This document shows, piece after piece, positions 33,093-58,675 of a stretch of 64,000 nt of DNA (the stretch's first letter is position 1; the number at the start of each line of letters is the position of its first letter). Origin of the DNA: Dehalococcoidia bacterium UBA5748 (GTDB lineage Bacteria; Chloroflexota; Dehalococcoidia; Dehalococcoidales; UBA5627); contig DIFM01000038.1 of the NCBI GenBank assembly GCA_002419135.1, forward strand, positions 1,922-65,921, in the 5' to 3' direction. The notes under the pieces were generated by a model that worked only from the letters and a program-made list of their open reading frames with translations, was not told the origin of the DNA and did not search any database. Both the position numbers and the translations under genes were made by a program.

Positions 33093-34013
33093 TCAGGGTA
33101 TTAAGAAATTCAAAACTTCATTTTCTAACATAAATAAATTGAAAAGATAGTCATTGTGATCAAATGTTTCTCTTAATGGTCTAGTTGTTGTTTTCCATCC
33201 AAAACCATCTGTGATCCAAATAAACTTAAATTGCCCTTTTAAAACATCGAAAAGATTCCTATATTCACCGGCAGTGGATTTAAGCTTAGAGCCTCCACCA
33301 CTGTAAAAATTGGTTTCAAAAATATATAGTTCTTTCCCGTTGTCTAAAACGAAATCATATTTTCTTGAAGATTTATCTACTGGAACAGTATAGTTGAATT
33401 CTCTTTTTATTTTATTGGCATCAGCTTGTTTTATATATCTGAACTTTTGTTTTTTACATAGATCCTGAATGAAAAATTCCACAATATTTTCCATACTATG
33501 CCCACTTCTATTTTTTCTTCCATTGCTATCGATTCCAGCTTCAACCCCTATTATATAATCAACCAAGTTCTTTATCTTGTTAGATGTAATTAGATTTTTC
33601 AACCCAGTCTCTTTGACAAATGTTAAATACCTATCAATGTCAGCTTCATTTAGATTGACTTTGCTAAAATCATAATCATCATAAACAAACCTTTTTTGCT
33701 TATAATCAACAAGAATTTTAAACTTTAAGTTATTACCACCATCACGTACAATGAGAGATGGGATAGCTTTTACTATTTCTGGATGTTGTTTTAGTAAAGA
33801 CTTAAACTCATTATCAAAATCTTTTTTACCAATTAAATAATTTAAAGTATTTAAAGAAATTTCTATGGCTTTTTCATTTTTAAATACTTTTTCCCAGTTT
33901 ACGAAGTAAGACCAAAGCAAAATACTAGGTTTTAAATTGTTTAATAAACAGTTAAAAACATCATCGCTACTTTTACATTTTAGGGTTTCATTGTAAAAAT
34001 TTAAATTCTTCAT
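33093..34013 (-). CDS. type II restriction endonuclease, DpnII/MboI family (predicted GATC)
   Basis: …NLVDYIIGVEAGIDSNGRKNRSGHSMENIV… and …ETNFYSGGGSKLKSTAGEY…WITDGFGW…LRETF… match family motifs as I recall them from R.DpnII. AT-rich (line 33121-33180 has 14/60 G+C). Confidence 0.8.
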   Translation of the reverse strand: MKNLNFYNETLKCKSSDDVFNCLLNNLKPSILLWSYFVNWEKVFKNEKAIEISLNTLNYLIGKKDFDNEFKSLLKQHPEIVKAIPSLIVRDGGNNLKFKILVDYKQKRFVYDDYDFSKVNLNEADIDRYLTFVKETGLKNLITSNKIKNLVDYIIGVEAGIDSNGRKNRSGHSMENIVEFFIQDLCKKQKFRYIKQADANKIKREFNYTVPVDKSSRKYDFVLDNGKELYIFETNFYSGGGSKLKSTAGEYRNLFDVLKGQFKFIWITDGFGWKTTTRPLRETFDHNDYLFNLFMLENEVLNFLIP

Positions 34014-34014
34014 T

Positions 34015-34443
34015 CTAATAGCCTTCTATTAAATTGAGTTCAATTGAATTTGGTTTTCTTCCTTTTTGTAAAGAATTTCTGCCTGTCTCTGTCATTAAAA
34101 TAATTGCGTCATATCCTTGAGTTTTTGCTGCAAGAAACATTTGCCTGTCAAGTTCAATCCTTTTATTGTACCAATCTTTATCATCTTCTGATTTTATCAC
34201 TTCATTAAGATATTTACGCCCATTGGAACCAAATAATTTTTTTAAAATTTCGAGTTCAGAAAACCCATATACTGGGTTATTTATACATACTTGCTCTGGT
34301 TCGATATTTGGCCTTCCATAAAATTCAGCTTGTAGATATGTTGAAGCAAGGAATTTTCCTCGTTTTTCGTATGCATGGGGATCTCTTGGTGGAACATGCC
34401 ACCAGTTAGATTTATTAACCTTTTTGATTAACAAATCTCTCAT
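34015..34443 (-). CDS. hypothetical protein embedded in the R-M operon (no recognisable domain)
   Basis: 142-aa ORF with the same AT-rich composition. Its ATG overlaps the methylase stop (ATGA). Its stop lies 1 nt before the endonuclease ATG. No HTH, so not a classical C-protein. Confidence 0.6.
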   Translation of the reverse strand: MRDLLIKKVNKSNWWHVPPRDPHAYEKRGKFLASTYLQAEFYGRPNIEPEQVCINNPVYGFSELEILKKLFGSNGRKYLNEVIKSEDDKDWYNKRIELDRQMFLAAKTQGYDAIILMTETGRNSLQKGRKPNSIELNLIEGY

Positions 34444-35252
34444 AACAAGTCCCGCCTATTTTCTTTAATTATTTTCAAATCTTCAACGCGTTTTATTGAT
34501 AAATCAAGGTATTCTTTTGAAGTATCTATCCCGACAAAATTACGATCGTAATAATAAGCGGCTAAACCCGTAGAAGAGCTACCTGTAAATGGGTCTAAAA
34601 TAGTATCCCCATCCTTGGTGCTTGCTAAAATAATTCGCTTTAATAAAGCAGTTGGTTTTTGGGTAGGGTGTTTTCCGTATTTTTTCTCCTCTTTTTTAGG
34701 AGTACCAATTGCCCAAACCGACCTCATTTGTAGTCCTGGTTTTTTTATAAAATCATCTTTCCATATTCCATTTTTCATTAGATCATAATTAAAAGTATGT
34801 TTAGATTTTTTATCTTTAATAGCCCATATGAGAGTTTCATGGCTGGCAGTAAAGTATCTACAACTAAGGTTGGGAGAGGCATTAGGTTTAAACCATGATA
34901 TATCATTTAAAATATGAAAATTGTTAATTTGTAGAGCGAATCCGCATTGGTAAATGGAATGATATGTTCCGCTAATCCAAATAGTCCCGTTTGGTTTTAA
35001 TACTCTTCGACAGGCTTTAATCCACTCTATGTGGAACTCGAAGTTTTTCTTTAATCCATTACTTAAATCCCATTCACCTTTCTTTACGCTGACTCTTTTA
35101 CCGTTTTGACAAGTGAAAGTTCCACTGGATAAGAAATAAGGAGGATCGGCGAAGATCATATCGATAGATTCTTCTGGCATTTCAGCAAGTACTTCTAAAC
35201 AGTCATCCAGATAGAGTTTGAAGCGTGGTACTTCATAATAAGGGGTTTTCAT
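34440..35252 (-). CDS. beta-class N6-adenine DNA methyltransferase, DpnA (M.DpnIIB)/HinfI-like
   Basis: Motif IV DMIFADPPYFLSSG near the N-terminus, …NLSCRYFTASHETLIWA…, HPTQKP, and motif I ILDPFTGSSSTG near the C-terminus. Confidence 0.9.
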   Translation of the reverse strand: MKTPYYEVPRFKLYLDDCLEVLAEMPEESIDMIFADPPYFLSSGTFTCQNGKRVSVKKGEWDLSNGLKKNFEFHIEWIKACRRVLKPNGTIWISGTYHSIYQCGFALQINNFHILNDISWFKPNASPNLSCRYFTASHETLIWAIKDKKSKHTFNYDLMKNGIWKDDFIKKPGLQMRSVWAIGTPKKEEKKYGKHPTQKPTALLKRIILASTKDGDTILDPFTGSSSTGLAAYYYDRNFVGIDTSKEYLDLSIKRVEDLKIIKENRRDLL

Positions 35253-35524: not shown

Positions 35525-36802
35525 TTATGCCGCCGGATTCATCACCCGCCCGACAAACAGAATGGTGTTGGTTTCGATATCGCGAATCAGGTAAATAAAG
35601 GGGTGGTCGAGGTTAACTTCAGCCTGTTCCAGTATACCTTTCAGGTTGATGATGACCGCTGAAGCGGCGGCGGCTTCGGTTCCGGCTTCATCTACGGATA
35701 CGTAAGCCTTGTGAACGACATCCTCAATGAAAAGGTCATAGCTTCCATCGATTCCTGACAAGTCGGCAACCATAGAGAAGGCATCCTTCATTCCCATAGT
35801 TACCAGCGCATCCTTGACGCTAAACTGGGAACTGTACTCGAATTTAGGCATCGACAGGGTAACTGTGGCGGTGCGGATGTTTTCAACGATCCCGTCGAGT
35901 CTCTGTGCATCAAAGGTCGCCTTAAACTGCTCGAAATTTCCGTCTTCGGGGAGAATAATCAGCATTGAAAGCTCGTTGCCGTCGTATTTCAGTTCGACTG
36001 CCTGATAACCGTCGCCTTCGGTATAACCGAAGTCTTCGGTCTGGTGCATCATCGGAACGGTAACGGTAGTTCCGTCGGGAAGGTAGAAGATACCATCGCT
36101 TGTTTTATCCTCATCGAAAGGTTTGTCCCAGGCGGCGTTGAAATAGATGGCATTGGTCAGAACGAGGCGGGTCAACTCCGATATGATTCCTTCTTTAATC
36201 AGGTCTTCTATTTTGCCCTCGGTCTGTTCGCTTACCCACTCGTTGATAGTCCGGCGGCAGGCTTCGGGGTCGCTAACAAAATCCAATAGCCTCAATCCGG
36301 CATCATAGTTCACCGCCAGCGTATCGAGGTAGTCCGAAAGGAATTCATATTCTACCTGCCCCCAGATAGCGTTCACGACATTGAGTTTGAAACCCTCCTC
36401 ATCCTCGCTCTTGTTGCCTTCTCCACGCTTGGCAAGCTCGATAGCAAGTTTGTTGAAAGCGGCATGCAAATCCTCTTCCTCGAGTATGAAATTGAGGGTT
36501 TCAGCCATTTGCTCTCTGGTTGCTCCCTCCGCTCCGGCATAGGTCATTGCCAGCGCTACGGAGAGGCTGTAAGGGGAAAAGAACAGGTTGCCGTCATCAC
36601 CATCACTCAGCTGCCGATAAAGTTCCAAAGCAAACTCATTATTGCCATCTACCAGTGTTTCAAAATCTGAAAAACTGACTTCGGGTGATGTATCGTACTT
36701 CTTATCGGATTTAAGTTCCTGCCCGTATACCTGCGTTTGCGAGCAGGAAACCGTACTCAAGACAAGTATTGCAGCAAGCACACTAAAAATTATCTTTTTC
36801 AT
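35525..36802 (-). CDS. serpin (serine protease inhibitor), secreted/lipobox-like signal
   Basis: Signal MKKIIFSVLAAILVLSTVSC. Serpin core (…FFSPYSLSVALAMTYAGA…). Hinge/RCL VDEAGTEAAAASAVIINLKGILEQAEVNLDHPFIYLIRD. Confidence 0.9.
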   Translation of the reverse strand: MKKIIFSVLAAILVLSTVSCSQTQVYGQELKSDKKYDTSPEVSFSDFETLVDGNNEFALELYRQLSDGDDGNLFFSPYSLSVALAMTYAGAEGATREQMAETLNFILEEEDLHAAFNKLAIELAKRGEGNKSEDEEGFKLNVVNAIWGQVEYEFLSDYLDTLAVNYDAGLRLLDFVSDPEACRRTINEWVSEQTEGKIEDLIKEGIISELTRLVLTNAIYFNAAWDKPFDEDKTSDGIFYLPDGTTVTVPMMHQTEDFGYTEGDGYQAVELKYDGNELSMLIILPEDGNFEQFKATFDAQRLDGIVENIRTATVTLSMPKFEYSSQFSVKDALVTMGMKDAFSMVADLSGIDGSYDLFIEDVVHKAYVSVDEAGTEAAAASAVIINLKGILEQAEVNLDHPFIYLIRDIETNTILFVGRVMNPAA

Positions 36803-36832
36803 ATCTGCTTCTCACTTGCGGCTACTCGATAT

Positions 36833-38113
36833 TTAGGCAGCCGGATTGATGACTCTTCCGATAAACAGGGTGGAACCGGTAGTGATGTCTTTGATAAGGA
36901 AGATAAACGAATTATTGATATTGACATCGGCGATTTCAATCGGCATCGAAGTCTCCCGGAAGATTACGGCGGTGGCTGCTGCCGCTTCGGTGCCTTCTTC
37001 ATCTACCGAAACGAATGCTTTATGAATGACGTCGCTTATGATAAGGTCAGCTTTATCCGTTATCCCGGAAAAGTCGGCGCTGCCAGAAAAAGCTTCCGGC
37101 ATTCCCATTGCTTTCAGGGCGTCGTTCAAGTTGAATTCCGATTCAAACTCGAATTTAGGCATAGTGAGGTTGACTTGTCCGAGCGACATTTCATCTATAA
37201 TACCGGCTACCGTTTCGGAGCTCAGTGAGTTTTCAAACTCGGAGAAATTGCCTTCGTCCGGCATAATTATAACCATAGACATTTCATAGATATCGTAAAG
37301 CAATTCTACTGCCGTATAACCATCTCCGTCCACATAGCTGAATCTTTCGCTCTGGTGCATCATCGGAACGGTAACGGTGCTGCCGTCCGGCAGATAGAAG
37401 GTGTCATCGTAGGTATAATCCTCATCGAACTGGTGCAGCCAGGCAGCGTTAAAGTAGATGGCGTTGGTAAGAACAAGGCGTGTCATTTCATCGATTGCGC
37501 CCTCAGGAATGAGGTCTTCGATGCGACCGTTGGTCTGTTCGTAAACCCAGTCATTGATGGTTTGCCGGCATGCTTCGGGGTCTTTTTCATAATCTAAAAG
37601 CCTGATTCCGGCATCATAATTTTCAGCCAGAACATCGAGGAATGCCTGCATAAACTCGAAGCCTGTCTGACCCCAGGTGGCATTTACGATATTCAACTCG
37701 AAACCCTGCGCCTCGCTGCCGGCGGGTATTTCGTTGCGGCTGTTAAGCTCGATAGCCAGTTTGTTAAAAGCTGAGTGCAGCTGCTCATCCTCCAGCATGA
37801 ACTTTAAGGTCTCTGCCATTTGCTCCTCGGTTTGCCCGTTGGCTCCGGCATAAGCCATAGCCAAAGCTAAAGATATGCTGTAGGGTGAGAAGAAGAAGTT
37901 ACCTTCCTTGGCGGCGCTGAGCTGTTTATAGAGGTCGAAAGCGAACTCGTTATTTCCGTTTACTAGCTCTGCCAGCGTCGAATCACTGACGCTGGGAGAC
38001 GAGTCATATGGTTTGTCGGATTTGGCTTCGGCACCGTACACCTGTGTTTGCGCACATGATACGGTGCTAAAAATCAACACCATACTTAAAAGTAAAAAAA
38101 TTATTTTTTTCAT
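36833..38113 (-). CDS. serpin paralogue, secreted/lipobox-like signal
   Basis: ATG at 38113 behind GGAGG gives MKKIIFLLLSMVLIFSTVSC. Core FFSPYSISLALAMAYAGA. Hinge/RCL VDEEGTEAAAATAVIFRETSMPIEIADVNINNSFIFLIKD. The track start at 38245 is unlikely. Confidence 0.9.
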   Translation of the reverse strand: MKKIIFLLLSMVLIFSTVSCAQTQVYGAEAKSDKPYDSSPSVSDSTLAELVNGNNEFAFDLYKQLSAAKEGNFFFSPYSISLALAMAYAGANGQTEEQMAETLKFMLEDEQLHSAFNKLAIELNSRNEIPAGSEAQGFELNIVNATWGQTGFEFMQAFLDVLAENYDAGIRLLDYEKDPEACRQTINDWVYEQTNGRIEDLIPEGAIDEMTRLVLTNAIYFNAAWLHQFDEDYTYDDTFYLPDGSTVTVPMMHQSERFSYVDGDGYTAVELLYDIYEMSMVIIMPDEGNFSEFENSLSSETVAGIIDEMSLGQVNLTMPKFEFESEFNLNDALKAMGMPEAFSGSADFSGITDKADLIISDVIHKAFVSVDEEGTEAAAATAVIFRETSMPIEIADVNINNSFIFLIKDITTGSTLFIGRVINPAA

Positions 38114-38371
38114 AGCCGAACCTCCGGTTGTTCTTTGTATTCTACTACTATAACGTCGGAAATGCAGCGGGGTTAGGGGATGATAATAATTATTTTTGGT
38201 AATTACAGAAAACTGCTTAATAAATATTGTTGCAAATTCCGACAAGCCGAGCCCGCATTATTACGAGTATCAGTTACAATTTGCCATGACAGTGTGCCCA
38301 TCATTTGGCTATGTATCAAAAAACTGCTATAATTATGCTTTAACTAACAGGAAGAAGGGTGAATTACTTAA

Positions 38372-38671: not shown

Positions 38672-39133
38672 CTATTTTTCGACCGGAATTACAATGCGGG
38701 TCGAAAGATTTTTTTCGGCAACATCCCCGGGTGAATTAAAATAATACTCGTAGTATAAACCCTTCGGTTTACAGCCGTTTTCCCCTATCCAGTCAAAAAG
38801 TTCCTGATAGACCGGTTTTAAATCGGTATAGGGTCCTTCATGCACATAAACGACAGCATCGCCGGGAACGGTTTCACCCGCTTTTATATCATCCTTGCCG
38901 GGCAGATTTTTTGATACGGGGACTCCAAATTCGATATCGATACTCTGCGTATCCAGCCTGTAATAGGCGGCAAAAGGCGCATCCGCCGGCGCTTCCCCCA
39001 ATTCAGCCAGATATTCGGCTATTCTGCGATAGCTGTCGTTAATAAGGCTTGGCAACTCGTCGATGGTTGTTTCCAACCTTACAGACAGTACCGGCTTCGC
39101 TTCCACTTTCTTCAGTTCAATTTTTGATTCCAC
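38672..39133 (-). CDS. GyrI-like small-molecule-binding domain protein
   Basis: 153 aa. …KKVEAKPVLSVR…, …FAAYY…, …VYVHEGPYTDLKPVYQELFDWIGENG…YEYYFN…, the SbmC/GyrI-like effector-domain pattern. GTG start behind GGAGGG. Confidence 0.7.
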   Translation of the reverse strand: MESKIELKKVEAKPVLSVRLETTIDELPSLINDSYRRIAEYLAELGEAPADAPFAAYYRLDTQSIDIEFGVPVSKNLPGKDDIKAGETVPGDAVVYVHEGPYTDLKPVYQELFDWIGENGCKPKGLYYEYYFNSPGDVAEKNLSTRIVIPVEK

Positions 39134-39150: not shown

Positions 39151-40152
39151 TTAAATATTATACAGCTGGACTCCGTAAGCGAAAGGATGTCCTTCGAGTT
39201 CGAAATCAGGTAAATAGTTATTCTCGGATTCCATTTGCTGCACCCAGCCGTTTTCAATCCCCAGCTCATCCAAAAGTTTACAGACTTCATCGTATTCTTT
39301 TTGCGTGATACCTCTTGAAAGAGACGGATGTTCAGAAGCCCGGTGCATCGGATGATACTGCGACATCAAGCTCACTGTTATTTCTTTAGATAGCTCTGTT
39401 GCCAGCCATTTTAACACTTCCCTGCTACCGGATAATCTTTCCGGCAGTATCAGGTGGCGCACAATCAGCCCGTGCTCCGCGATACCGTTATTATCAATAA
39501 TAAGATTTCCCACCTGCCTGTACATTTCTTTAACGGCAGACTGTGCCTTTTCAACATAGTTTCCAACGCCGGATAGTTTCAAAGCTGATTCGTTGTCAAA
39601 ATACTTGAAATCGGGCAGGTAGATATCGATAACGCCGTCCAGTTCTTTTAAAGTTTCCAGGCTGTCATAGCCGTTGGTGTTATAAACCAGTGGAATATTA
39701 AGCCCCAGCGGCACCGCTTCCAGAAGTGCTTTGACAATCTGCGGTACGAAGTGCGACGGAGAAACCAGGTTGATATTATGGCAGCCGAGCTTATCCTGTA
39801 AATACAACATCTGCCCCGCCAGTTGATGATTAGTAATTTCGTTTGTTTTTTGCCTATTCGAGTCCTGACTGATTTGGTGATTCTGGCAATAGAGGCAGCG
39901 CAGGTTGCAATTAGCAAAAAATATCGTCCCCGAACCGTGGTTCCCTGAAAGAACAGGCTCCTCGCCGTGATGGTCGCAATATGATGAGACAATCGGCAAG
40001 TACCCGGAATGGCAGTACCCCGTTTCACCCCGGCAGCGGTTGACACCGCAATCTCTCGGACAGATATCACAGGAAGCAAGCCTTCTATCAAGCCGCTCTG
40101 CCCGCTTTGCAAGTTCGCCTGATTTATAGAGTGAAATATATCCGGGAATCAT
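39151..40152 (-). CDS. radical SAM protein, PflX-like (COG1313-type)
   Basis: N-terminal Cys-rich CDICPRDCGVNRCRGETGYC plus radical-SAM CNLRCLYCQN. Confidence 0.8.
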   Translation of the reverse strand: MIPGYISLYKSGELAKRAERLDRRLASCDICPRDCGVNRCRGETGYCHSGYLPIVSSYCDHHGEEPVLSGNHGSGTIFFANCNLRCLYCQNHQISQDSNRQKTNEITNHQLAGQMLYLQDKLGCHNINLVSPSHFVPQIVKALLEAVPLGLNIPLVYNTNGYDSLETLKELDGVIDIYLPDFKYFDNESALKLSGVGNYVEKAQSAVKEMYRQVGNLIIDNNGIAEHGLIVRHLILPERLSGSREVLKWLATELSKEITVSLMSQYHPMHRASEHPSLSRGITQKEYDEVCKLLDELGIENGWVQQMESENNYLPDFELEGHPFAYGVQLYNI

Positions 40153-40200: not shown

Positions 40201-41691
40201 CTATTCCTTGACGGTTTTATCCTTTGCCTTATCAAGCACTACCAGCGCTTCGTTTATTCTCTTAATACAGCGTTCTTTACCGAGTACCGCCATTGTCTGG
40301 AAAAGCGGAGGGGCTGCCTCCCTGCCGGTGGTTGCAGACCTCAAAGTGCCGAACAACTGCCCGGTCTTAACCTCCAGTTTTTCCGCCATCGGCCTCAAAA
40401 TATTTTCCAGTGCTTCCTCCGTAAAATCCGGGAGTTCGCCCAGTTCCTTCAAGGCTGTTTCGAGCATTATCCCGGTCGTCTCACGGCTTGTTTTCTTGGC
40501 AACCAGAATATTGGGGTCATATTCGAGATTTTCTGTAAAAAAGAAATCGGTCAGTTCCGCTATTTCGTTCAGTTTTTTAACCCTCTCCTGTACCAGCGGA
40601 GCAATCTGCTTTACGTACTCCAAAGAGAGCGGTCTTTTAACATCCGACGGTAAATCTCTTTCGAGGAACGGGATTACCCTTTGTGAAAAATCATCAACCT
40701 TAAGGTCGCGTATGTATACTCCGTTCATCCAGTCCAGCTTTTCGACATTGAAAATGGCTCCGGTAGAGTTTACGCGTCCCAAGGTAAAGTTCTTTATTAT
40801 TTCTTTGACGGTCATCAGTTCGGTTTTCCCGTCCAGCGACCAGCCCAAAAGCGACAGAAAATTCATCATCGCTTCGGGCAGATAACCCTGTTCCTTGTAA
40901 TCCATTATGGATACCGAACCGTGACGCTTGCTGAGCTTCGACCTGTCGGTACCGAGAAGCATCGGCAGATGGGCAAACTCGGGCGGTTTGTATCCCATGG
41001 CTTTATACATCAACAGGTGGCGGGGTGTGCTCGAAAGCCACTCTTCCGCTCGTAAAACATGGGTAATTCCCATCTCATAGTCATCTACAATGCTGGCAAG
41101 GTGATAGGTTGGAAATCCATCGGACTTGATGATAACGAAATCGTCGACAGTGGAGTTTTCAAAGGTTACATCACCGCGTATGATATCGTGAAAGGTGGTT
41201 TTACCGGCAAGCGGCGTGCGGAAACGCACTACCCTTTTCATCCCCGACATCCACTTTAACACCCCTTCCGGAACGGGCATATCACGGCAGCGCCTGTCGT
41301 AACCGGGGGGCTGCTTGTTTTTCATCTGCTCATTGCGCATTTCCTCAAGGCGCTCGGGTGGGCAATAACAATAATAGGCATCACCCTGTTCGATTAACTT
41401 TTTAGCGGCGGCTTTATATTTATTCAATCGCTCAGACTGCACATAGGGACCGAAATTACCGCCGGCCTGCGGACCCTCATCCCAATCTATTCCCAGCCAG
41501 CGCAAACCATCCAAAATAGCCTCGACGGCGCCATCAACGGTACGGGCGACATCGGTATCCTCGATCCGCACGATGAAACTGCCGCCGTGATGTCGGGCAA
41601 AAAGCCAGTTGAACAAAGCGGTTCTGATATTACCTACATGGGGGTAGCCGGTGGGACTGGGGGCATAACGTACTCTGACTTTATCACTCAT
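40201..41691 (-). CDS. gltX: glutamate--tRNA ligase
   Basis: …RYAPSPTGYPHVGNIRTALFN… (HIGH) and KLSKRHG (KMSKS); 496 aa. Confidence 0.95.
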   Translation of the reverse strand: MSDKVRVRYAPSPTGYPHVGNIRTALFNWLFARHHGGSFIVRIEDTDVARTVDGAVEAILDGLRWLGIDWDEGPQAGGNFGPYVQSERLNKYKAAAKKLIEQGDAYYCYCPPERLEEMRNEQMKNKQPPGYDRRCRDMPVPEGVLKWMSGMKRVVRFRTPLAGKTTFHDIIRGDVTFENSTVDDFVIIKSDGFPTYHLASIVDDYEMGITHVLRAEEWLSSTPRHLLMYKAMGYKPPEFAHLPMLLGTDRSKLSKRHGSVSIMDYKEQGYLPEAMMNFLSLLGWSLDGKTELMTVKEIIKNFTLGRVNSTGAIFNVEKLDWMNGVYIRDLKVDDFSQRVIPFLERDLPSDVKRPLSLEYVKQIAPLVQERVKKLNEIAELTDFFFTENLEYDPNILVAKKTSRETTGIMLETALKELGELPDFTEEALENILRPMAEKLEVKTGQLFGTLRSATTGREAAPPLFQTMAVLGKERCIKRINEALVVLDKAKDKTVKE

Positions 41692-42536
41692 TATTTATCC
41701 CTATTTGTAACAAATAATATTTTAGAAACAGCAGTATAGGTCTTTTTGTCAAATTTAAATACAACTTCATCTTCAGTAGTAACAGTTTCTTCATTAAAAA
41801 AGCTATCAATCTTATTAAATATTAATTCAAATTCTCGTTTTAGTGCCCAACTCATACTCAAATCATCTTTATTGAAAAGCACAACAAACAACCGATTATC
41901 GTAACCAAACCTTTGAGCACCTTGGTTTTCGTATAGCCATATAGCTAACTCCTGGGGATTTTCCATAGCATAGATAGGATCATAGCTCTTTGGTAAATAC
42001 GTTATCTTCAAATCGAAGGGTTGTCCATTAAAGAATATATCGACTCCTTTAATGCTTTTTAAAGTCGGAATAACATTTTTATGTTTACTAATGTGCTCCT
42101 CAATTAACACTGTAGTCCAATGATTAAACCAAGTACAAACAACATAATTAGTAACTTTGCTATGTAATTGAAGTTCAACATTGTGAATTAACTCGTTATA
42201 TCTTACATATTTCCTGACGTATTCAGATTGTATTTTCTGGTCTAGTTGGCCTTGCACAACTCCCCAAGAAAAATTTTTAACATTTTTTAATTCTTGTTTC
42301 AGATCCTCATCTGATATTAAATCCTGCCGTTCTATAATACACTCTATGTATTTCTTTTTAATAAAGCTATTTACAAAATTTCCATTTATTGACGTATTGA
42401 GCAATTTTTTAATAATATCTGCACCGGTACCAGAACTATCAATATTACTATACTCGTTAGCAAATTCTCTCAATTGAGAGACTGGGATTGAACTAAGTTT
42501 CATTTTTAAAACTTCTTTATCACTATAAATCGGCAT
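41691..42536 (-). CDS. putative type II restriction endonuclease (PD-DxK)
   Basis: AT-rich ORF directly downstream of a DNA methyltransferase. Candidate catalytic core …IKGVDIFFNGQPFDLKITY… (D-x12-D-x-K). Family not recognised. Stop TAA shares one base with the gltX ATG (TAATG). Confidence 0.5.
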   Translation of the reverse strand: MPIYSDKEVLKMKLSSIPVSQLREFANEYSNIDSSGTGADIIKKLLNTSINGNFVNSFIKKKYIECIIERQDLISDEDLKQELKNVKNFSWGVVQGQLDQKIQSEYVRKYVRYNELIHNVELQLHSKVTNYVVCTWFNHWTTVLIEEHISKHKNVIPTLKSIKGVDIFFNGQPFDLKITYLPKSYDPIYAMENPQELAIWLYENQGAQRFGYDNRLFVVLFNKDDLSMSWALKREFELIFNKIDSFFNEETVTTEDEVVFKFDKKTYTAVSKILFVTNRDK

Positions 42537-42540
42537 AACC

Positions 42541-43692
42541 TTATCCCTTTTTCTTAAACAGCATTATATACTCATGTTTAAAAACATAAAAACCACCAAC
42601 TAAAGCCCTATATCTCCACAGGTCTTTTTGGTTTCTCTTTCCCCTAGTTTCCTCAAAATTTTTAACAATAATGCTTTTTAATATAAAATCCCTTTTTAGA
42701 ACCTCTTCCATGCATTTAAAGCCAAGAGGTATCCATTCCCCTTTTGAATATTTATCTCCAATTACAAGAGCAAAATATCGCCCCTTTTCCAAGAATGGAG
42801 CAGTATTATCTATAACCTCACCAAACATTCTTAAAAATTCATCGATTCCGTTAGCTGCTGAAAGGTCTCTCCTGTCATTTGAAAACTTAATGATATCGTA
42901 ATAGGGCGGATGCATAATAAGCAACTGTATATTTTTTCGCCCAATATTACTAAGTGTTTTTTCTAAATCTATAGTTCTACTATCATCATTAATTACTTCA
43001 GTAATAATATTATCTTTATTTATCTCTCTGCTAATCAGTTCCTCAGCTTTTAGGGCAACAGTACTATTTAATTCTACCCCAATTCCATTCCTTCCTAATC
43101 TTCGGCATTCAATAAGAGTAGTACCACTGCCTAAAAAAGCATCTAAAACCCAGTCTTCCTTCTTTGTATATCTTGTAATCATCTGATGAGGTATTTGAGG
43201 AACAAAGTTTCCCCAATACCAGCCGACATGAGCCCCCGATGCATCTCTTTTATCAAGCATCCAAAGACTATCTGTTATTATGTCATCGTATTCTTTCCAT
43301 CTATGAAGATTGATATCATTTATTTTGCTAGTTTTAATACCCTGAATGCTTTTTTCTAATCTTTGCAAATAGTACTTCGCCCTTCCTACTGTTTGAGATT
43401 GTAATATCTGTTCAATTTCTGAAATAAGTACATCTTTTCTAAGTGTTACAGTATCACCATTAGAACCTATATTTAATAAACCATCTCTATCTTCCTTAGG
43501 AAAAGAGACTATTTTTTTTAAGCTCGCTACATGATTTCTCAGTTCGCTTAATTCAGAAATATCCATTGATTGCCGCAAAGCATCTAAAAACTTTTCCTTA
43601 TTTATAAATGCAGGATTAGAATTGCTTGCTAAATTAGAAAAATCATCACTAAATATGTATTCTAATTGTCTGTTATCACGCTGTAGTGTCAT
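42541..43692 (-). CDS. DNA methyltransferase (N6-A/N4-C type) with motif order I then IV and unknown N-terminal domain
   Basis: …VLDAFLGSGTTLIECRRLGRNGIGVELN (AdoMet motif I), followed about 60 aa later by LLIMHPPYYDII (motif IV, unusual H). About 180-aa N-terminal region unassigned. AT-rich (line 42301-42360 has 18/60 G+C). Confidence 0.7.
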   Translation of the reverse strand: MTLQRDNRQLEYIFSDDFSNLASNSNPAFINKEKFLDALRQSMDISELSELRNHVASLKKIVSFPKEDRDGLLNIGSNGDTVTLRKDVLISEIEQILQSQTVGRAKYYLQRLEKSIQGIKTSKINDINLHRWKEYDDIITDSLWMLDKRDASGAHVGWYWGNFVPQIPHQMITRYTKKEDWVLDAFLGSGTTLIECRRLGRNGIGVELNSTVALKAEELISREINKDNIITEVINDDSRTIDLEKTLSNIGRKNIQLLIMHPPYYDIIKFSNDRRDLSAANGIDEFLRMFGEVIDNTAPFLEKGRYFALVIGDKYSKGEWIPLGFKCMEEVLKRDFILKSIIVKNFEETRGKRNQKDLWRYRALVGGFYVFKHEYIMLFKKKG

Positions 43693-43694
43693 AT

Positions 43695-44216
43695 TTACGC
43701 CTCTACTACTTTGGGGCTGGTATTTGTAGCTTTTATTTTTGGCTGCGGCACAATTACCACAAACGTCCCGGCAATTTTATCATGAAATCCCTGCTTTTGT
43801 TTATCAAAGGCAATCCAGATAAAACCGAAAAACAGCGGGACTGCAGATATAATGTACCCGAGATATCTTAAGAATGCAACCGGGAACGTTATATCCGAGC
43901 TGTCGGGACGAATAACCCTGATATTCATTACTATCTTGCCCGGAGTTTGCCCTCGCCAAGCCCAGAATATAACGAAATAACCGATTACTATTATTAATGT
44001 TATCAGATTAAACAATATAATCTGCGGCAGAATAAACCAATCCGATATGCCACCGAGTATATCCGGATTCCACAGACGTATGTAGCCCAAATGATGAAAC
44101 GGTACAAAAATGGAAGAAACAACCGATAAAACAACAGCATCGATTGCAAAAGCGGCAAATCTGCGCCAGAAGCCGGCAAATTCAAGAACAATACCACCGG
44201 ATTCTTCCTTTATCAT
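43695..44216 (-). CDS. RDD-family membrane protein
   Basis: …FWRRFAAFAIDAVVL…, …GQTPGKIVMNIRVI…, …QGFHDKIAGTFVV is a typical RDD domain. Confidence 0.8.
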   Translation of the reverse strand: MIKEESGGIVLEFAGFWRRFAAFAIDAVVLSVVSSIFVPFHHLGYIRLWNPDILGGISDWFILPQIILFNLITLIIVIGYFVIFWAWRGQTPGKIVMNIRVIRPDSSDITFPVAFLRYLGYIISAVPLFFGFIWIAFDKQKQGFHDKIAGTFVVIVPQPKIKATNTSPKVVEA

Positions 44217-44301: not shown

Positions 44302-45207
44302 TTAAGCGATTTTTTCCAGCACTTGCTTTAAATCATCGGGCAGTTCGGATTGAAATTCAATATATTTACCGGTGGACGGAAGATAAAACCCGATGCGATT
44401 AGCATGCAGGAATTGCCGTGTGAGAAACGGCGATTTGATTCCGTACGCTGTGTCACCTAATACCGGAAAACCGATTGCCGCCAGGTGTACCCTGATTTGG
44501 TGGGTTCGACCCGTCTCCAGCGTTATTTCCAGTAATGAATATCCATTATTATAGTATGTGACAACCCGGTAACGCGTGCGCGCTTCCTTCCCGTTTTCCG
44601 TAATTGCCATTCGTTTGCGGTTTCCCTTATCCCGCCCCAGATTGGCTTCGATAAGTCCGGTTTCCGGTTTAATATGCCCTTTCACCAGCGTCAGGTAGTT
44701 TTTGGTTACCGAGCGTGATTTAAACTGTTCGGAAAGATTTGCCAGCGACTCCCTGTTCTTGGCGACAATTACCAGCCCCGAAGTATCTTTATCCAGCCTG
44801 TGAACGATGCCGGGTCGCAGCCTTTCACCGCCGCTATCGGCAAGTTCCGGAAAATACGAGAGGACGGCATTAACCAGCGTATGCTCGGGGTGCCCGGGCG
44901 CCGGATGCACTGTCAGCCCGGCGGGCTTATCTATAACTAAAAGGTCACTGTCTTCATAAATGATATCGAGGGGAATCGGCTCTGCTTTAAGTGAGGTGGT
45001 ATCAATCTCAGGAATACTTATAATAATTCTATCGCCGGCACTGAGCTTAAAGCCGGCTTTTTCCGCACGATTATTGACGGTAACTTTGTCGCCATCTATC
45101 AATTTTTGTATAAAGCTGCGCGAAACTGAGGGAAGTCTTGTGGCTATATATTTGTCCAGCCGCTCCCCCGCAACCTCAACCGGCAATTCGTGAATTTCTT
45201 CTTGCAT
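44302..45207 (-). CDS. rluD: RluA-family 23S rRNA pseudouridine synthase (RluD-like)
   Basis: N-terminal S4 domain, catalytic HRLDKDTSG, …GRTHQIRVH…. Confidence 0.9.
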   Translation of the reverse strand: MQEEIHELPVEVAGERLDKYIATRLPSVSRSFIQKLIDGDKVTVNNRAEKAGFKLSAGDRIIISIPEIDTTSLKAEPIPLDIIYEDSDLLVIDKPAGLTVHPAPGHPEHTLVNAVLSYFPELADSGGERLRPGIVHRLDKDTSGLVIVAKNRESLANLSEQFKSRSVTKNYLTLVKGHIKPETGLIEANLGRDKGNRKRMAITENGKEARTRYRVVTYYNNGYSLLEITLETGRTHQIRVHLAAIGFPVLGDTAYGIKSPFLTRQFLHANRIGFYLPSTGKYIEFQSELPDDLKQVLEKIA

Positions 45208-45217
45208 AAATAAACCG

Positions 45218-45712
45218 TTAATCTCCGGCTAATTTGATATAGGTGATAGCCAAAAGCACTGCCCCTATCGAAATTGCGGCGTCAGCTACATTGAAGATAG
45301 CAAAGAAATCGACATCGATAAAATCGACTACATAGCCGTAACTTAACCTGTCTATGAGGTTGCCGACAGTACCGCCCATAATAAGTCCGAGCGATAACCT
45401 GGCCGGCACACTTCTTAAAAACCTGATACGCTTAGACAAATAGAATACGATAACCAGTAGCAGGATAACGCCGATTATCGAAAAAATGGACAACAAATAG
45501 GTGTGGTCACGGAATATACTGAAAGCGGCGCCGGTATTTTGCACATACGTAATATGGAAAAACCCCGATTCCGGTATGGACTGACCGAGTGTCAGGTTCG
45601 TCTTAATTAAGTATTTTGTTAACTGGTCTATTGCAATTATCGGTAATGAAACCCATAAAAAGACCGAACCTCTGTTGTAAAACTCCTTAAAGAAGCTCTT
45701 TAGCTTATCCAT
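45218..45712 (-). CDS. lspA: lipoprotein signal peptidase II
   Basis: …NTGAAFSIF… and …FAIFNVADAAISIG… motifs; four TM helices. Confidence 0.9.
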   Translation of the reverse strand: MDKLKSFFKEFYNRGSVFLWVSLPIIAIDQLTKYLIKTNLTLGQSIPESGFFHITYVQNTGAAFSIFRDHTYLLSIFSIIGVILLLVIVFYLSKRIRFLRSVPARLSLGLIMGGTVGNLIDRLSYGYVVDFIDVDFFAIFNVADAAISIGAVLLAITYIKLAGD

Positions 45713-46064
45713 TCTTTGCTTTATTAGCGTTACACTCCATGCAATACAATGCCTGTGGTAAAGCTTCCAATCTCTCGGGATTTATAGGCTTGCCGCATAT
45801 TTCACAGGTTCCGTAAGTTCCCTTGTCGAACTTATCAAGTGCCCTTTCTACTTCTGCCAGCTGTTCCCTGGTCCTATGTTCAAGCGCCATACGATTCTCC
45901 AGGTCGGCAGTTTCGGTAGCTTCTTCTTCCCTCTTACCGAAGGGACTGCCTTCACGCCTGTTTTCCGTCGGACGACTGGCTTTCAATTGCTCCAACTGTT
46001 CTTCCAGTCGTTTGCGGTCATCTTCCAGGTGAAGCTTCATTAATTTATGATTTGCAGTTTTCAC
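45705..46064 (-). CDS. DksA/TraR-family C4 zinc-finger protein
   Basis: Coiled-coil N-terminus plus CEICGKPINPERLEALPQALYCMEC. 8-nt overlap with lspA. Confidence 0.8.
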   Translation of the reverse strand: MKTANHKLMKLHLEDDRKRLEEQLEQLKASRPTENRREGSPFGKREEEATETADLENRMALEHRTREQLAEVERALDKFDKGTYGTCEICGKPINPERLEALPQALYCMECNANKAKNG

Positions 46065-57820: not shown

Positions 57821-58675
57821 TTAATTCCCTTTGCATAATTGGGGTTCCTGTGTTTTTAAATAACATTGACTACATTGAGGTTTGCTTTTGGTACATATTG
57901 CTCCTTGATATTCAGCACAAAATATCCAAATAACACTGTCAATGTATTTGCGAGATTCTGTTAGTGTGTCCGCAATAGTGATGCCAATTTGTCTGACATC
58001 TTTTTGTCTTTGAGACACTTTTATCTTTGTTTGATCAAGGTTAATCTTATTAAAAAAGCGGATCGTATGCGCATCGGGCTTAAACTCATCTATGCCTATA
58101 TTATTAAAAAATTCACAACATATAGATAAACGAACATTCCGAAGTTTATAATTACTAATAGGGTCTGTGAAACATTTTATCAAAGAGTCAGCTTTTGCGC
58201 GGACATAACAGTTATTAGCATTATCATATGCTGAATTATTTAAATGACTTGATATCAAATTACAAACCGATCCGTGCTTTATGATAATGTGTTGAAATAT
58301 TTTTGCGTTATCGCGGATAGAAAATAATTCATCTTCAAGGAATCTTGCCTTTACTTGACTCTTGTACTTAGTATAAAGACTCGTCATATAGCTATCAGTT
58401 AGTGTTGCAACCGTATTTATATTATAATTGCATAAATCTATCTTCAGTGGCTGTAAAATATTTTGTATAGAAGACCACGTAGCTTGTCTTGATAAAATAG
58501 CTTTACTTAGCCCTTCTAAAATATCTGAATCACTTCTTTGGCATGAATGAGGATATAATTTAATATTTTTTAATACATTCGGTTTTAAAGTATTAAGCGT
58601 TTTATTAATACGGTCTATTAATATTCTACAATCTGATACCGAATACACATCAATATTCATATTTATCAACTCCAT
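57821..58675 (-). CDS. divergent HhH-GPD superfamily (endonuclease III-like) protein with Fe-S cluster loop
   Basis: …LSKAILSRQATWSSIQNIL… (ILSQxT-type helix). …FKPDAHTIRFF… (the vDtHvxR catalytic-Asp context of Nth-like enzymes). C-terminal CTKSKPQCSQCYLKTQEPQLC (C-x7-C-x2-C-x9-C). Strongly AT-rich (line 58201-58260 has 15/60 G+C). Confidence 0.55.
   Translation of the reverse strand: MELINMNIDVYSVSDCRILIDRINKTLNTLKPNVLKNIKLYPHSCQRSDSDILEGLSKAILSRQATWSSIQNILQPLKIDLCNYNINTVATLTDSYMTSLYTKYKSQVKARFLEDELFSIRDNAKIFQHIIIKHGSVCNLISSHLNNSAYDNANNCYVRAKADSLIKCFTDPISNYKLRNVRLSICCEFFNNIGIDEFKPDAHTIRFFNKINLDQTKIKVSQRQKDVRQIGITIADTLTESRKYIDSVIWIFCAEYQGAICTKSKPQCSQCYLKTQEPQLCKGN

Follow-up and report, generated by a model that had tools for sequence, protein, structure and literature searches.

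Organization of the locus

The window analysed here is a 64,000-nucleotide (nt) stretch of contig DIFM01000038.1 from Dehalococcoidia bacterium UBA5748, and this work concerns a segment of ~2 kb on its minus strand (41691-43692) that carries two genes and directly precedes gltX, the gene of glutamyl-tRNA synthetase. The first of the two (42541-43692; GC 0.32) codes for a DNA methyltransferase of 383 amino acids (aa; PF01555, 4.6e-23; PADLOC MTase_II PDLC03351, 4.3e-145). The second (41691-42536) is an open reading frame (ORF) of 281 aa whose product, judged from its methyltransferase neighbourhood, natural fusions and a predicted core, is a probable restriction endonuclease. The minus-strand gene order examined is rluD (44302-45207; PF00849, 5.9e-38), the gene of an RDD-family membrane protein (43695-44216; PF06271, 4.5e-28), the methyltransferase gene, the 281-aa ORF and gltX (40201-41691; PF00749, 4.5e-107; PF19269, 4.3e-35), i.e. 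the RDD gene is the left flank and gltX the right flank of the slot in which the pair sits. lspA (45218-45712) and a dksA/traR-like gene (45705-46064) belong to the same co-directional cluster upstream, and a promoter scan places a promoter-like site ahead of the cluster (46206-46177). A radical SAM gene (39151-40152) and a GyrI-like gene (38672-39133) follow downstream, all of these features being on the minus strand.

The genes are packed almost without intergenic sequence. At the left border of the segment (43693-43697) the TAA stop codon of the RDD gene is followed by the 2 nt AT and then by the ATG of the methyltransferase gene; similarity to a related locus with other content, L094, stops at this RDD stop codon. 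The methyltransferase gene ends with TAA and is separated by 4 nt (GGTT) from the ATG of the 281-aa ORF, and the last A of the TAA of this ORF (41693-41691) is the first base of the gltX ATG (41691-41689), giving the sequence TAATG (41689-41693). Thus, both coordinates and sequence agree with the original prediction, which had described an operon with 2-nt, 4-nt and -1-nt junctions and a stop codon sharing a base with the gltX start. As four contigs from four different samples are identical in this respect, the arrangement is not an assembly artefact. The gltX protein is 96% identical to that of a metagenome-assembled genome of the Dehalococcoidales.

Neither border of the segment has a target-site duplication or terminal inverted repeats, a search for which gave chance AT-rich matches only, and there is no recombinase ORF from the RDD gene to gltX or among the neighbouring genes. 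The hallmarks of transposons, integrons and integrative elements, i.e. a duplication, inverted repeats, attC or a linked transposase or integrase, were not found at the slot. Promoter and terminator scans are uninformative in DNA this rich in AT, save for one result: no site resembling a terminator was seen within the segment on its coding strand.

A foreign segment at a site that is empty in ten relatives

The GC content of the segment is 31.7% as compared to 49.5% for gltX, 41.6% for the RDD gene and 43.9% for the whole window, and its nearest homologues outside the clade are from WOR-3, Stahlbacteria, Omnitrophica and other phyla (60-73% identity). In 10 related contigs (L016, L097, L099-L101, L103, L105, L109, L112, L140) the slot is empty and the RDD gene is followed by gltX after ~12-80 nt, so that the pair must be regarded as an insertion; the order dksA-lspA-rluD upstream is conserved (L021, L094, L095, L177). 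These empty sites bear out the original prediction that a low-GC methyltransferase and its partner are wedged into the operon directly upstream of gltX. Judged by its composition and distribution, the segment is a foreign, probably horizontally acquired cassette that resembles a type II restriction-modification (R-M) system.

The opposite view, i.e. that the pair is native and vertically inherited within the operon or that the contig is a metagenomic chimera, could appeal to the co-directional, tightly packed genes, to the lack of mobile-element signatures and to the occurrence of the methyltransferase in three lineages of the clade. We consider it hardly credible, however, as the cassette has a GC deficit of 12-18 points against its surroundings, ten relatives have an empty site, different cargos occur between near-identical flanks, four independent assemblies have the identical arrangement and the methyltransferase genes of the window and L175 are 84% identical at the nt level, whereas the host genes are only 69-79% identical. 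Clade-wide conservation with native composition, which the original prediction had named as the outcome that would speak against it, is not what we find: GC is low, sites are empty and the cargo differs.

The methyltransferase

The methyltransferase matches PF01555 with 82.8 bits, the Pfam gathering threshold being 26.7, but the match is split in two, with the C-terminal portion of the profile aligned to residues 157-212. Motif I, LDAFLGSGTT (residues 183-192; 43117-43146, minus strand), constitutes the loop that binds S-adenosylmethionine (SAM) and aligns to motif I of 2zig, MboIIA and DpnA from the PDB. Motif IV reads HPPY (residues 261-264; 42901-42912, minus strand). Hence, motif I (residue 183) precedes motif IV (residue 261), whereas solved β-class enzymes have IV before I, and the enzyme thus exceeds the PF01555 score threshold but departs from the linear motif order of this family. 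As compared to M.PvuII, M.MboIIA, DpnA and CcrM, i.e. β-class enzymes of PF01555, it shares the alignable SAM-binding motif I region and a catalytic PPY motif, but it is permuted, has HPPY instead of D/N/SPPY and carries ~130 additional aa at the N-terminus.

Homologues of the enzyme with 66-90% identity were found. HPPY and FLGSGTT are kept in homologues, and HPPY is present in all seven that were extracted from other phyla. The unusual motif IV, noted together with the permutation in the original prediction, is thus confirmed by residue positions and homologues, and this conservation indicates that HPPY is characteristic of the family and not a degenerate site. A literature search on 'HPPY' methyltransferases gave no relevant paper. 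That the PADLOC MTase_II model matches the protein means that this family has been recognized before as one of type II modification enzymes. This model covers residues 30-382, so that the earlier description of the N-terminal ~180 aa as unassigned holds only in part; the N-terminal ~130 aa are conserved in the close family and replaced in one subgroup (L012). With motifs I and IV both intact, as expected for the modification enzyme of a type II R-M system, the protein looks like an active member of a known, circularly permuted type II family within PF01555.

The 281-aa protein

No match to the 281-aa protein was found in Pfam, NCBIfam, PADLOC or the sequences of the PDB, be it with the single sequence or with a profile, in line with the original prediction, which could name no family for it. 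Nevertheless, the protein belongs to a large family. We found 983 homologues of ~277 aa with 60-65% identity, some of them with WOR-3, Stahlbacteria and Omnitrophica as named sources, and a profile search of 1.84 billion representatives gave 552 clusters. Clustered at 90% the family comprises ~1000 sequences, and at 50% these 552 clusters. Among plasmids and phages, the collections searched contained a single weak match, which is on a plasmid, and none in a phage.

In five of five unrelated contexts a gene of this family lies downstream of a gene of the same methyltransferase family, either directly or after one ORF, and in the context loci L005-L013, which are from several phyla, methyltransferase and 277-aa gene are neighbours. 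The two proteins thus co-occur as a unit in unrelated genomes. Many of these contexts are defence islands with HEPN/NT toxin pairs, a ThsB-TIR gene or a CfrBI R-M system nearby. In two of the five an ORF of 182-186 aa stands between the two genes (L005 4465-5013; L012 3457-4017); it overlaps the start of the 277-aa gene and has no Pfam or PADLOC match. Pfam scans of 10 distant relatives revealed no nuclease family, but brought up two natural fusions, namely P0279 (729 aa), in which the domain is joined to a Dam-like D12 methyltransferase, and P0346 (484 aa), in which it is joined to a PF01555 methyltransferase. Their architecture suggests that they are single-chain R-M enzymes within the 281-aa family.

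The conservation pattern and an AF2 model point to a candidate catalytic core, D166-x8-D175-L-K177 (VDIFFNGQPFDLK; 42006-42041, minus strand), on the predicted strands β2 and β3. In alignment A1, D166 and K177 do not vary, and at least 90% of the sequences have D175. Among relatives with 23-54% identity (A3) K177, Q205 and R215 are invariant, and D166, D175, W136 and P157 are at least 90% conserved, the signature of the family being VD-FF...PFDLK, YENQG-RF and NRLF. The original prediction had proposed a D-x12-D-x-K core, which the alignments replace by D166-x8-D175-x-K177. The model (pLDDT 88.6, ~90 in the core) has a core with the order α(126-151)-β-β-β-α-β that follows a helical N-terminal part; its strands 155-162, 165-169 and 172-180 are succeeded by a helix (187-203) and a further strand (215-221). 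E146 and E147 are located on helix 126-151, D166 starts strand 165-169, and D175-L-K177 lies on strand 172-180. Conserved acidic residues and a lysine on adjacent strands within an α-β-β-β-α-β fold are the features of PD-(D/E)xK nucleases, and in the model the layout of the core is the canonical one. Since the conserved D166-x8-D175-x-K177 motif lies within a confidently predicted core, the 281-aa protein is probably a nuclease, and taking sequence context and model together we regard a restriction endonuclease as probable.

The structure searches gave no significant similarity to a solved member of the PD-(D/E)xK superfamily. In Foldseek searches against the PDB the best E value was 0.15 for the full AF2 model and 0.11 for a model of the domain alone (residues 120-281, pLDDT 61.5), both not significant, and BstEII, McrC, FAN1 and XisH occur solely among such insignificant matches. 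The protein may instead be an accessory or DNA-binding partner, e.g. a specificity or regulatory factor, and the methyltransferase an orphan or an epigenetic enzyme. This alternative would account for the lack of a significant fold or sequence match to any nuclease and for the fact that PADLOC has no restriction endonuclease (REase) model for the protein, although the nucleases at the same position in related strains are recognized at once. Residues 12-55 at the N-terminus bear a weak resemblance, which is not significant (E = 1.4), to a SAP-like DNA-binding motif, and a distant homologue from Priestia has no methyltransferase next to it. However, we regard an accessory role as improbable. The signature VD-FF...PFDLK, in which K177 does not vary and D166 and D175 reach a conservation of at least 90%, lies on consecutive strands after a helix with conserved glutamates, which corresponds to the PD-(D/E)xK layout; the order methyltransferase, then partner is strict across phyla and is found in defence islands; the fusions with methyltransferases of the Dam-like and PF01555 types look like fused R-M enzymes; and type II nucleases notoriously escape similarity searches. 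The 281-aa family thus shares with PD-(D/E)xK type II endonucleases the acid at the start of a strand, D-x-K on the next strand, the glutamate helix and the neighbouring methyltransferase, but differs in that neither sequence comparison nor Foldseek relates it to solved members and in that Pfam, NCBIfam and PADLOC do not contain it.

The Priestia homologue is a 240-aa protein encoded on Priestia megaterium pFDU301A (L178 3758-4480) that keeps IDFY...PFDLK and WLYENQ. Its gene adjoins dCMP-deaminase-like and dNMP-kinase-like ORFs, a neighbourhood from which the family may have roles outside classical R-M as well.

The junction between the RDD gene and gltX in related strains

The slot between the RDD gene and gltX is occupied in several relatives, and its content varies. 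Allele A, found in the window and in L174, consists of the methyltransferase gene and the 281-aa gene (280 aa in L174). Allele B (L175, L176, L177) has the same methyltransferase (86-90% aa identity), a 352-aa ORF and, downstream of the latter, a 232-aa protein that is a recognized REase (PADLOC REase_II, 4.9e-37; Pfam ICEA, 1.6e-6) and whose ORF overlaps gltX by 11 nt in L175. That a recognized REase is encoded behind this methyltransferase in allele B, albeit after the 352-aa ORF, also speaks for a nuclease role of the 281-aa protein. Allele C (L094) combines a ThaI-family nuclease (PF15514, 7e-94) with a 309-aa β-class methyltransferase and forms TAATG with gltX. Allele D (L096) is an abortive-infection gene (AIPR, PF10592, 1.4e-29; AbiU, 2.3e-24). 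Finally, L095 has a scar, i.e. a spacer of 255 nt; its last 64 nt match the 3' end of the methyltransferase gene of L094 with 85% identity. Every cargo has a GC content below that of the flanks and is co-directional with the operon, and the borders lie within ~10 nt of the stop codon of the RDD gene and the start codon of gltX. Four cargo types, one scar and ten empty sites between the same conserved flanks are what defines a hotspot, and by this comparison the junction between the RDD gene and gltX is a recurrent slot for defence cargo in the clade.

The 352-aa ORF of allele B (L175 2105-3163; also L176 and L177) has no Pfam or PADLOC match. It contains a stretch IDIV...IELK, which could be a second PD-(D/E)xK site. 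Membership of this ORF in the 281-aa family was considered and rejected (hhalign E = 0.61). In more distant Dehalococcoidales homologues of the ThaI-partner methyltransferase (62-69% identity) occur without a nuclease, adjoining gltX with TAATG in L015 (5045-6001) and lying upstream of the RDD gene in L112 (47-409); these genes may be orphans after nuclease loss.

Probable exchange of cargo

The divergence of cargo and flanks does not match. The 204-nt flank available for L174 is identical to that of the ThaI allele L094 in 201 positions and to that of the window in only 193, yet L174 carries the window-type cassette. Across alleles A and B the methyltransferase genes have 84-88% nt identity regardless of whether the host gltX differs by 5% or by 21%, i.e. 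methyltransferase divergence does not track gltX divergence (gltX, 79-95% nt identity). Between L175 and L176 the methyltransferase gene differs by 6.4% and gltX by 2.1%, i.e. the former changes about three times faster. Given this ratio, strict co-divergence with gltX, which is 21% different between the window and L175, would call for more than the 16% seen in their methyltransferase genes. Taken together, these comparisons point to an exchange of cargo between related strains at a fixed position, for which homologous recombination in the flanks would be the simplest mechanism.

In keeping with such an exchange, two contigs break at the borders of the cassette, L014 starting at the gltX ATG and L177 ending 84 nt past the methyltransferase gene, a pattern that cargo polymorphism at the strain level would produce by splitting the assembly graph.

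The overlap with gltX

The original prediction had suggested that the overlap of stop and start codon couples translation of gltX to the R-M genes and thereby makes the latter hard to lose. If so, expression of an essential gene would depend on the cassette, which would be protected from deletion and thus gain a second layer of addiction. Several observations fit this idea. TAATG occurs in the window, in L094 with its ThaI genes and in L015, where a methyltransferase gene meets gltX, and in L175 the last cargo ORF even reaches 11 nt into gltX; the scar L095 has kept exactly the 64 nt that abut gltX, as expected if they are needed for its expression; and the leaders of L094 and L095 have no obvious Shine-Dalgarno (SD) sequence.

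However, the junction of the sister copy L174 reads GAT-TAA-CA-ATG instead of GAT-AAA-TAATG as in the window, i.e. it has the same length and two substitutions, but a gap of 2 nt between stop and start, and hence the TAATG overlap is not a conserved feature of the cassette. In total, a stop/start overlap with gltX is seen in four cases (window, L094, L015, L175) and lacking in three (L174, L096, L095). The 281-aa ORF of the window is 3-4 codons longer than the norm of its family, which ends ...ITK-stop; comparison of family ends identifies the C-terminal extension N-R-D-K (41694-41705, minus strand), and the L174 copy ends ...NRD. These last codons contain an SD-like AGGGA (41698-41702) at -11 to -7, 7 nt ahead of the gltX ATG, where ribosomes could plausibly bind to translate gltX. 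In L095, the scar allele, no ORF precedes gltX, so that coupling would be dispensable there. The comparison of the region upstream of gltX in relatives reveals frequent turnover of the slot and no retention. Short overlaps of one or four bases are moreover commonplace in compact operons, and as tight or overlapping junctions are normal in this operon (8 nt between the dksA-like gene and lspA), the overlap by itself is not unusual. A lock that depends on translational coupling thus seems unlikely to us, and the idea that the overlap holds the R-M genes in place is attractive but unsupported.

A weaker form of the idea does hold. Five of six arrangements with cargo have a last cargo ORF whose end lies no more than 11 nt from the start of gltX. 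Because of these flush ends, the constant orientation of the cargo and a scar that is a piece abutting gltX, it is probably the need to keep gltX expressed that constrains how cargo sits in the slot, which is not the same as an addiction device.

Interpretation

Based on these findings the 41691-43692 segment is likely a two-gene type II R-M cassette, i.e. a methyltransferase with its likely endonuclease, that was horizontally acquired and resides in a recurrent cargo slot between the RDD gene and gltX. The cassette, apparently without a promoter of its own, lies inside a housekeeping cluster (dksA-like gene, lspA, rluD, RDD gene, gltX, radical SAM gene) and would be transcribed by read-through from the operon promoter. 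The product of the first gene, a permuted PF01555 methyltransferase, would modify DNA, and that of the second, with its PD-(D/E)xK-like core (E146/E147 on a helix, D166, D175-x-K177), would most likely be the corresponding restriction endonuclease. Cargo may be swapped between related strains via homologous recombination in the conserved flanks, and the 3' end of the last cargo gene would then serve as the translation-initiation region of gltX. The one-base overlap may thus be a by-product of flush packing in a compact genome, permitting coupling without being a conserved lock.

Apart from the missing match of the 281-aa protein to any family model or solved structure, several points weigh against this interpretation. 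The AT-rich cassette contains many promoter-like matches, so that an internal promoter for gltX or for the cassette itself is possible. The comparative data are all metagenomic, and recombinational exchange is deduced from incongruent divergences and from a flank of L174 that comprises just 204 nt. Finally, palindrome avoidance allowed no assignment of a recognition site as the k-mers do not discriminate. GGCC, for instance, has an observed/expected (O/E) ratio of 0.23 in the window, but is depleted in all related loci whatever their cargo (L005-L012, L094, L095, L100, L175), and no GGCC-specific system was identified. CATG (0.67 of expectation) and CGCG (0.71) are only mildly depleted. GATC has an O/E ratio of 0.18 (48 observed, 271 expected), which is explained by a DpnII-type system elsewhere in the window.

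A more far-reaching proposal, which we put forward only tentatively and consider rather doubtful, is that the slot is an integrase-free exchange site to which promoterless cargo is admitted only if it is co-directional and flush, since its last ORF must feed ribosomes or a ribosome-binding site to gltX, and in which the methyltransferase is kept while its nuclease partner is replaced by unrelated ones, i.e. the 281-aa family or the 352-aa ORF together with the IceA/NlaIII-like protein. If true, non-homologous nucleases of the same specificity would swap beside one methyltransferase.

Relation to known systems

The classical example of different restriction systems alternating at a single locus is provided by the pneumococcal DpnI and DpnII cassettes, and Lacks and colleagues reportedly described these alternative cassettes of Streptococcus pneumoniae as an 'intercellular cassette mechanism'. 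The situation here is similar in that non-homologous restriction sets occupy the same site between conserved flanks in different strains, sets that recombination in the flanks can swap in the pneumococcal case. However, the slot described here has at least four cargo types, including an abortive-infection gene that is not an R-M system, as well as empty and scar states; it is located inside an operon and flush with the start of an essential tRNA synthetase gene; and exchange is deduced from metagenomic contigs.

Hotspots of defence genes flanked by core genes have been described in the pan-genomes of E. coli and Pseudomonas. In both cases core genes flank variable anti-phage cargo (R-M, Abi or none), but the cargo here comprises only one to three genes, has no integrase or mobile backbone, lies within an operon and is always co-directional.

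R-M systems are known to insert into operon-like gene clusters and to substitute for genomic regions (Ishikawa, Fukuda, Kobayashi review, PMC2993543, section 4). The pair in the window resembles these mobile systems as it lies in a co-directional cluster, has no linked transposase or integrase and shows presence/absence and substitution polymorphism. It differs in that there is no long target duplication and in that the borders are a stop and a start codon, to within ~10 nt. Thus, the general phenomenon of R-M mobility has already been described and nothing here overturns it. Rather, the slot provides a natural example of in-operon defence turnover in uncultured Dehalococcoidales, i.e. in small genomes without obvious mobile elements, and may be useful for studying how cargo must be arranged without disturbing an essential downstream gene. 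The 281-aa family constitutes a widespread candidate endonuclease family without a library model or solved structure and is thus a target for enzyme discovery.

Other loci in the window

A second low-GC R-M locus of the window (33093-35252, minus strand) is of the DpnII type, with a DpnII nuclease (PF04556, 4e-90) and a β-class PF01555 methyltransferase. It lies between a miaB-like gene and serpin genes, and an unassigned 142-aa ORF stands between nuclease and methyltransferase with junctions of 1 nt and -4 nt. Kinship of this ORF with the 182-aa ORF that intervenes between methyltransferase and 277-aa gene in some of the contexts described above was considered, but the two are unrelated. Between both R-M loci there are two tandem serpin genes (425 and 470 aa; 35525-38245, minus strand), and serpins are also present in L175 and L176. 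Downstream of polA a low-GC (0.32) island (57821-58675, minus strand) contains a 284-aa ORF, which is followed by ORFs of 94 and 333 aa.

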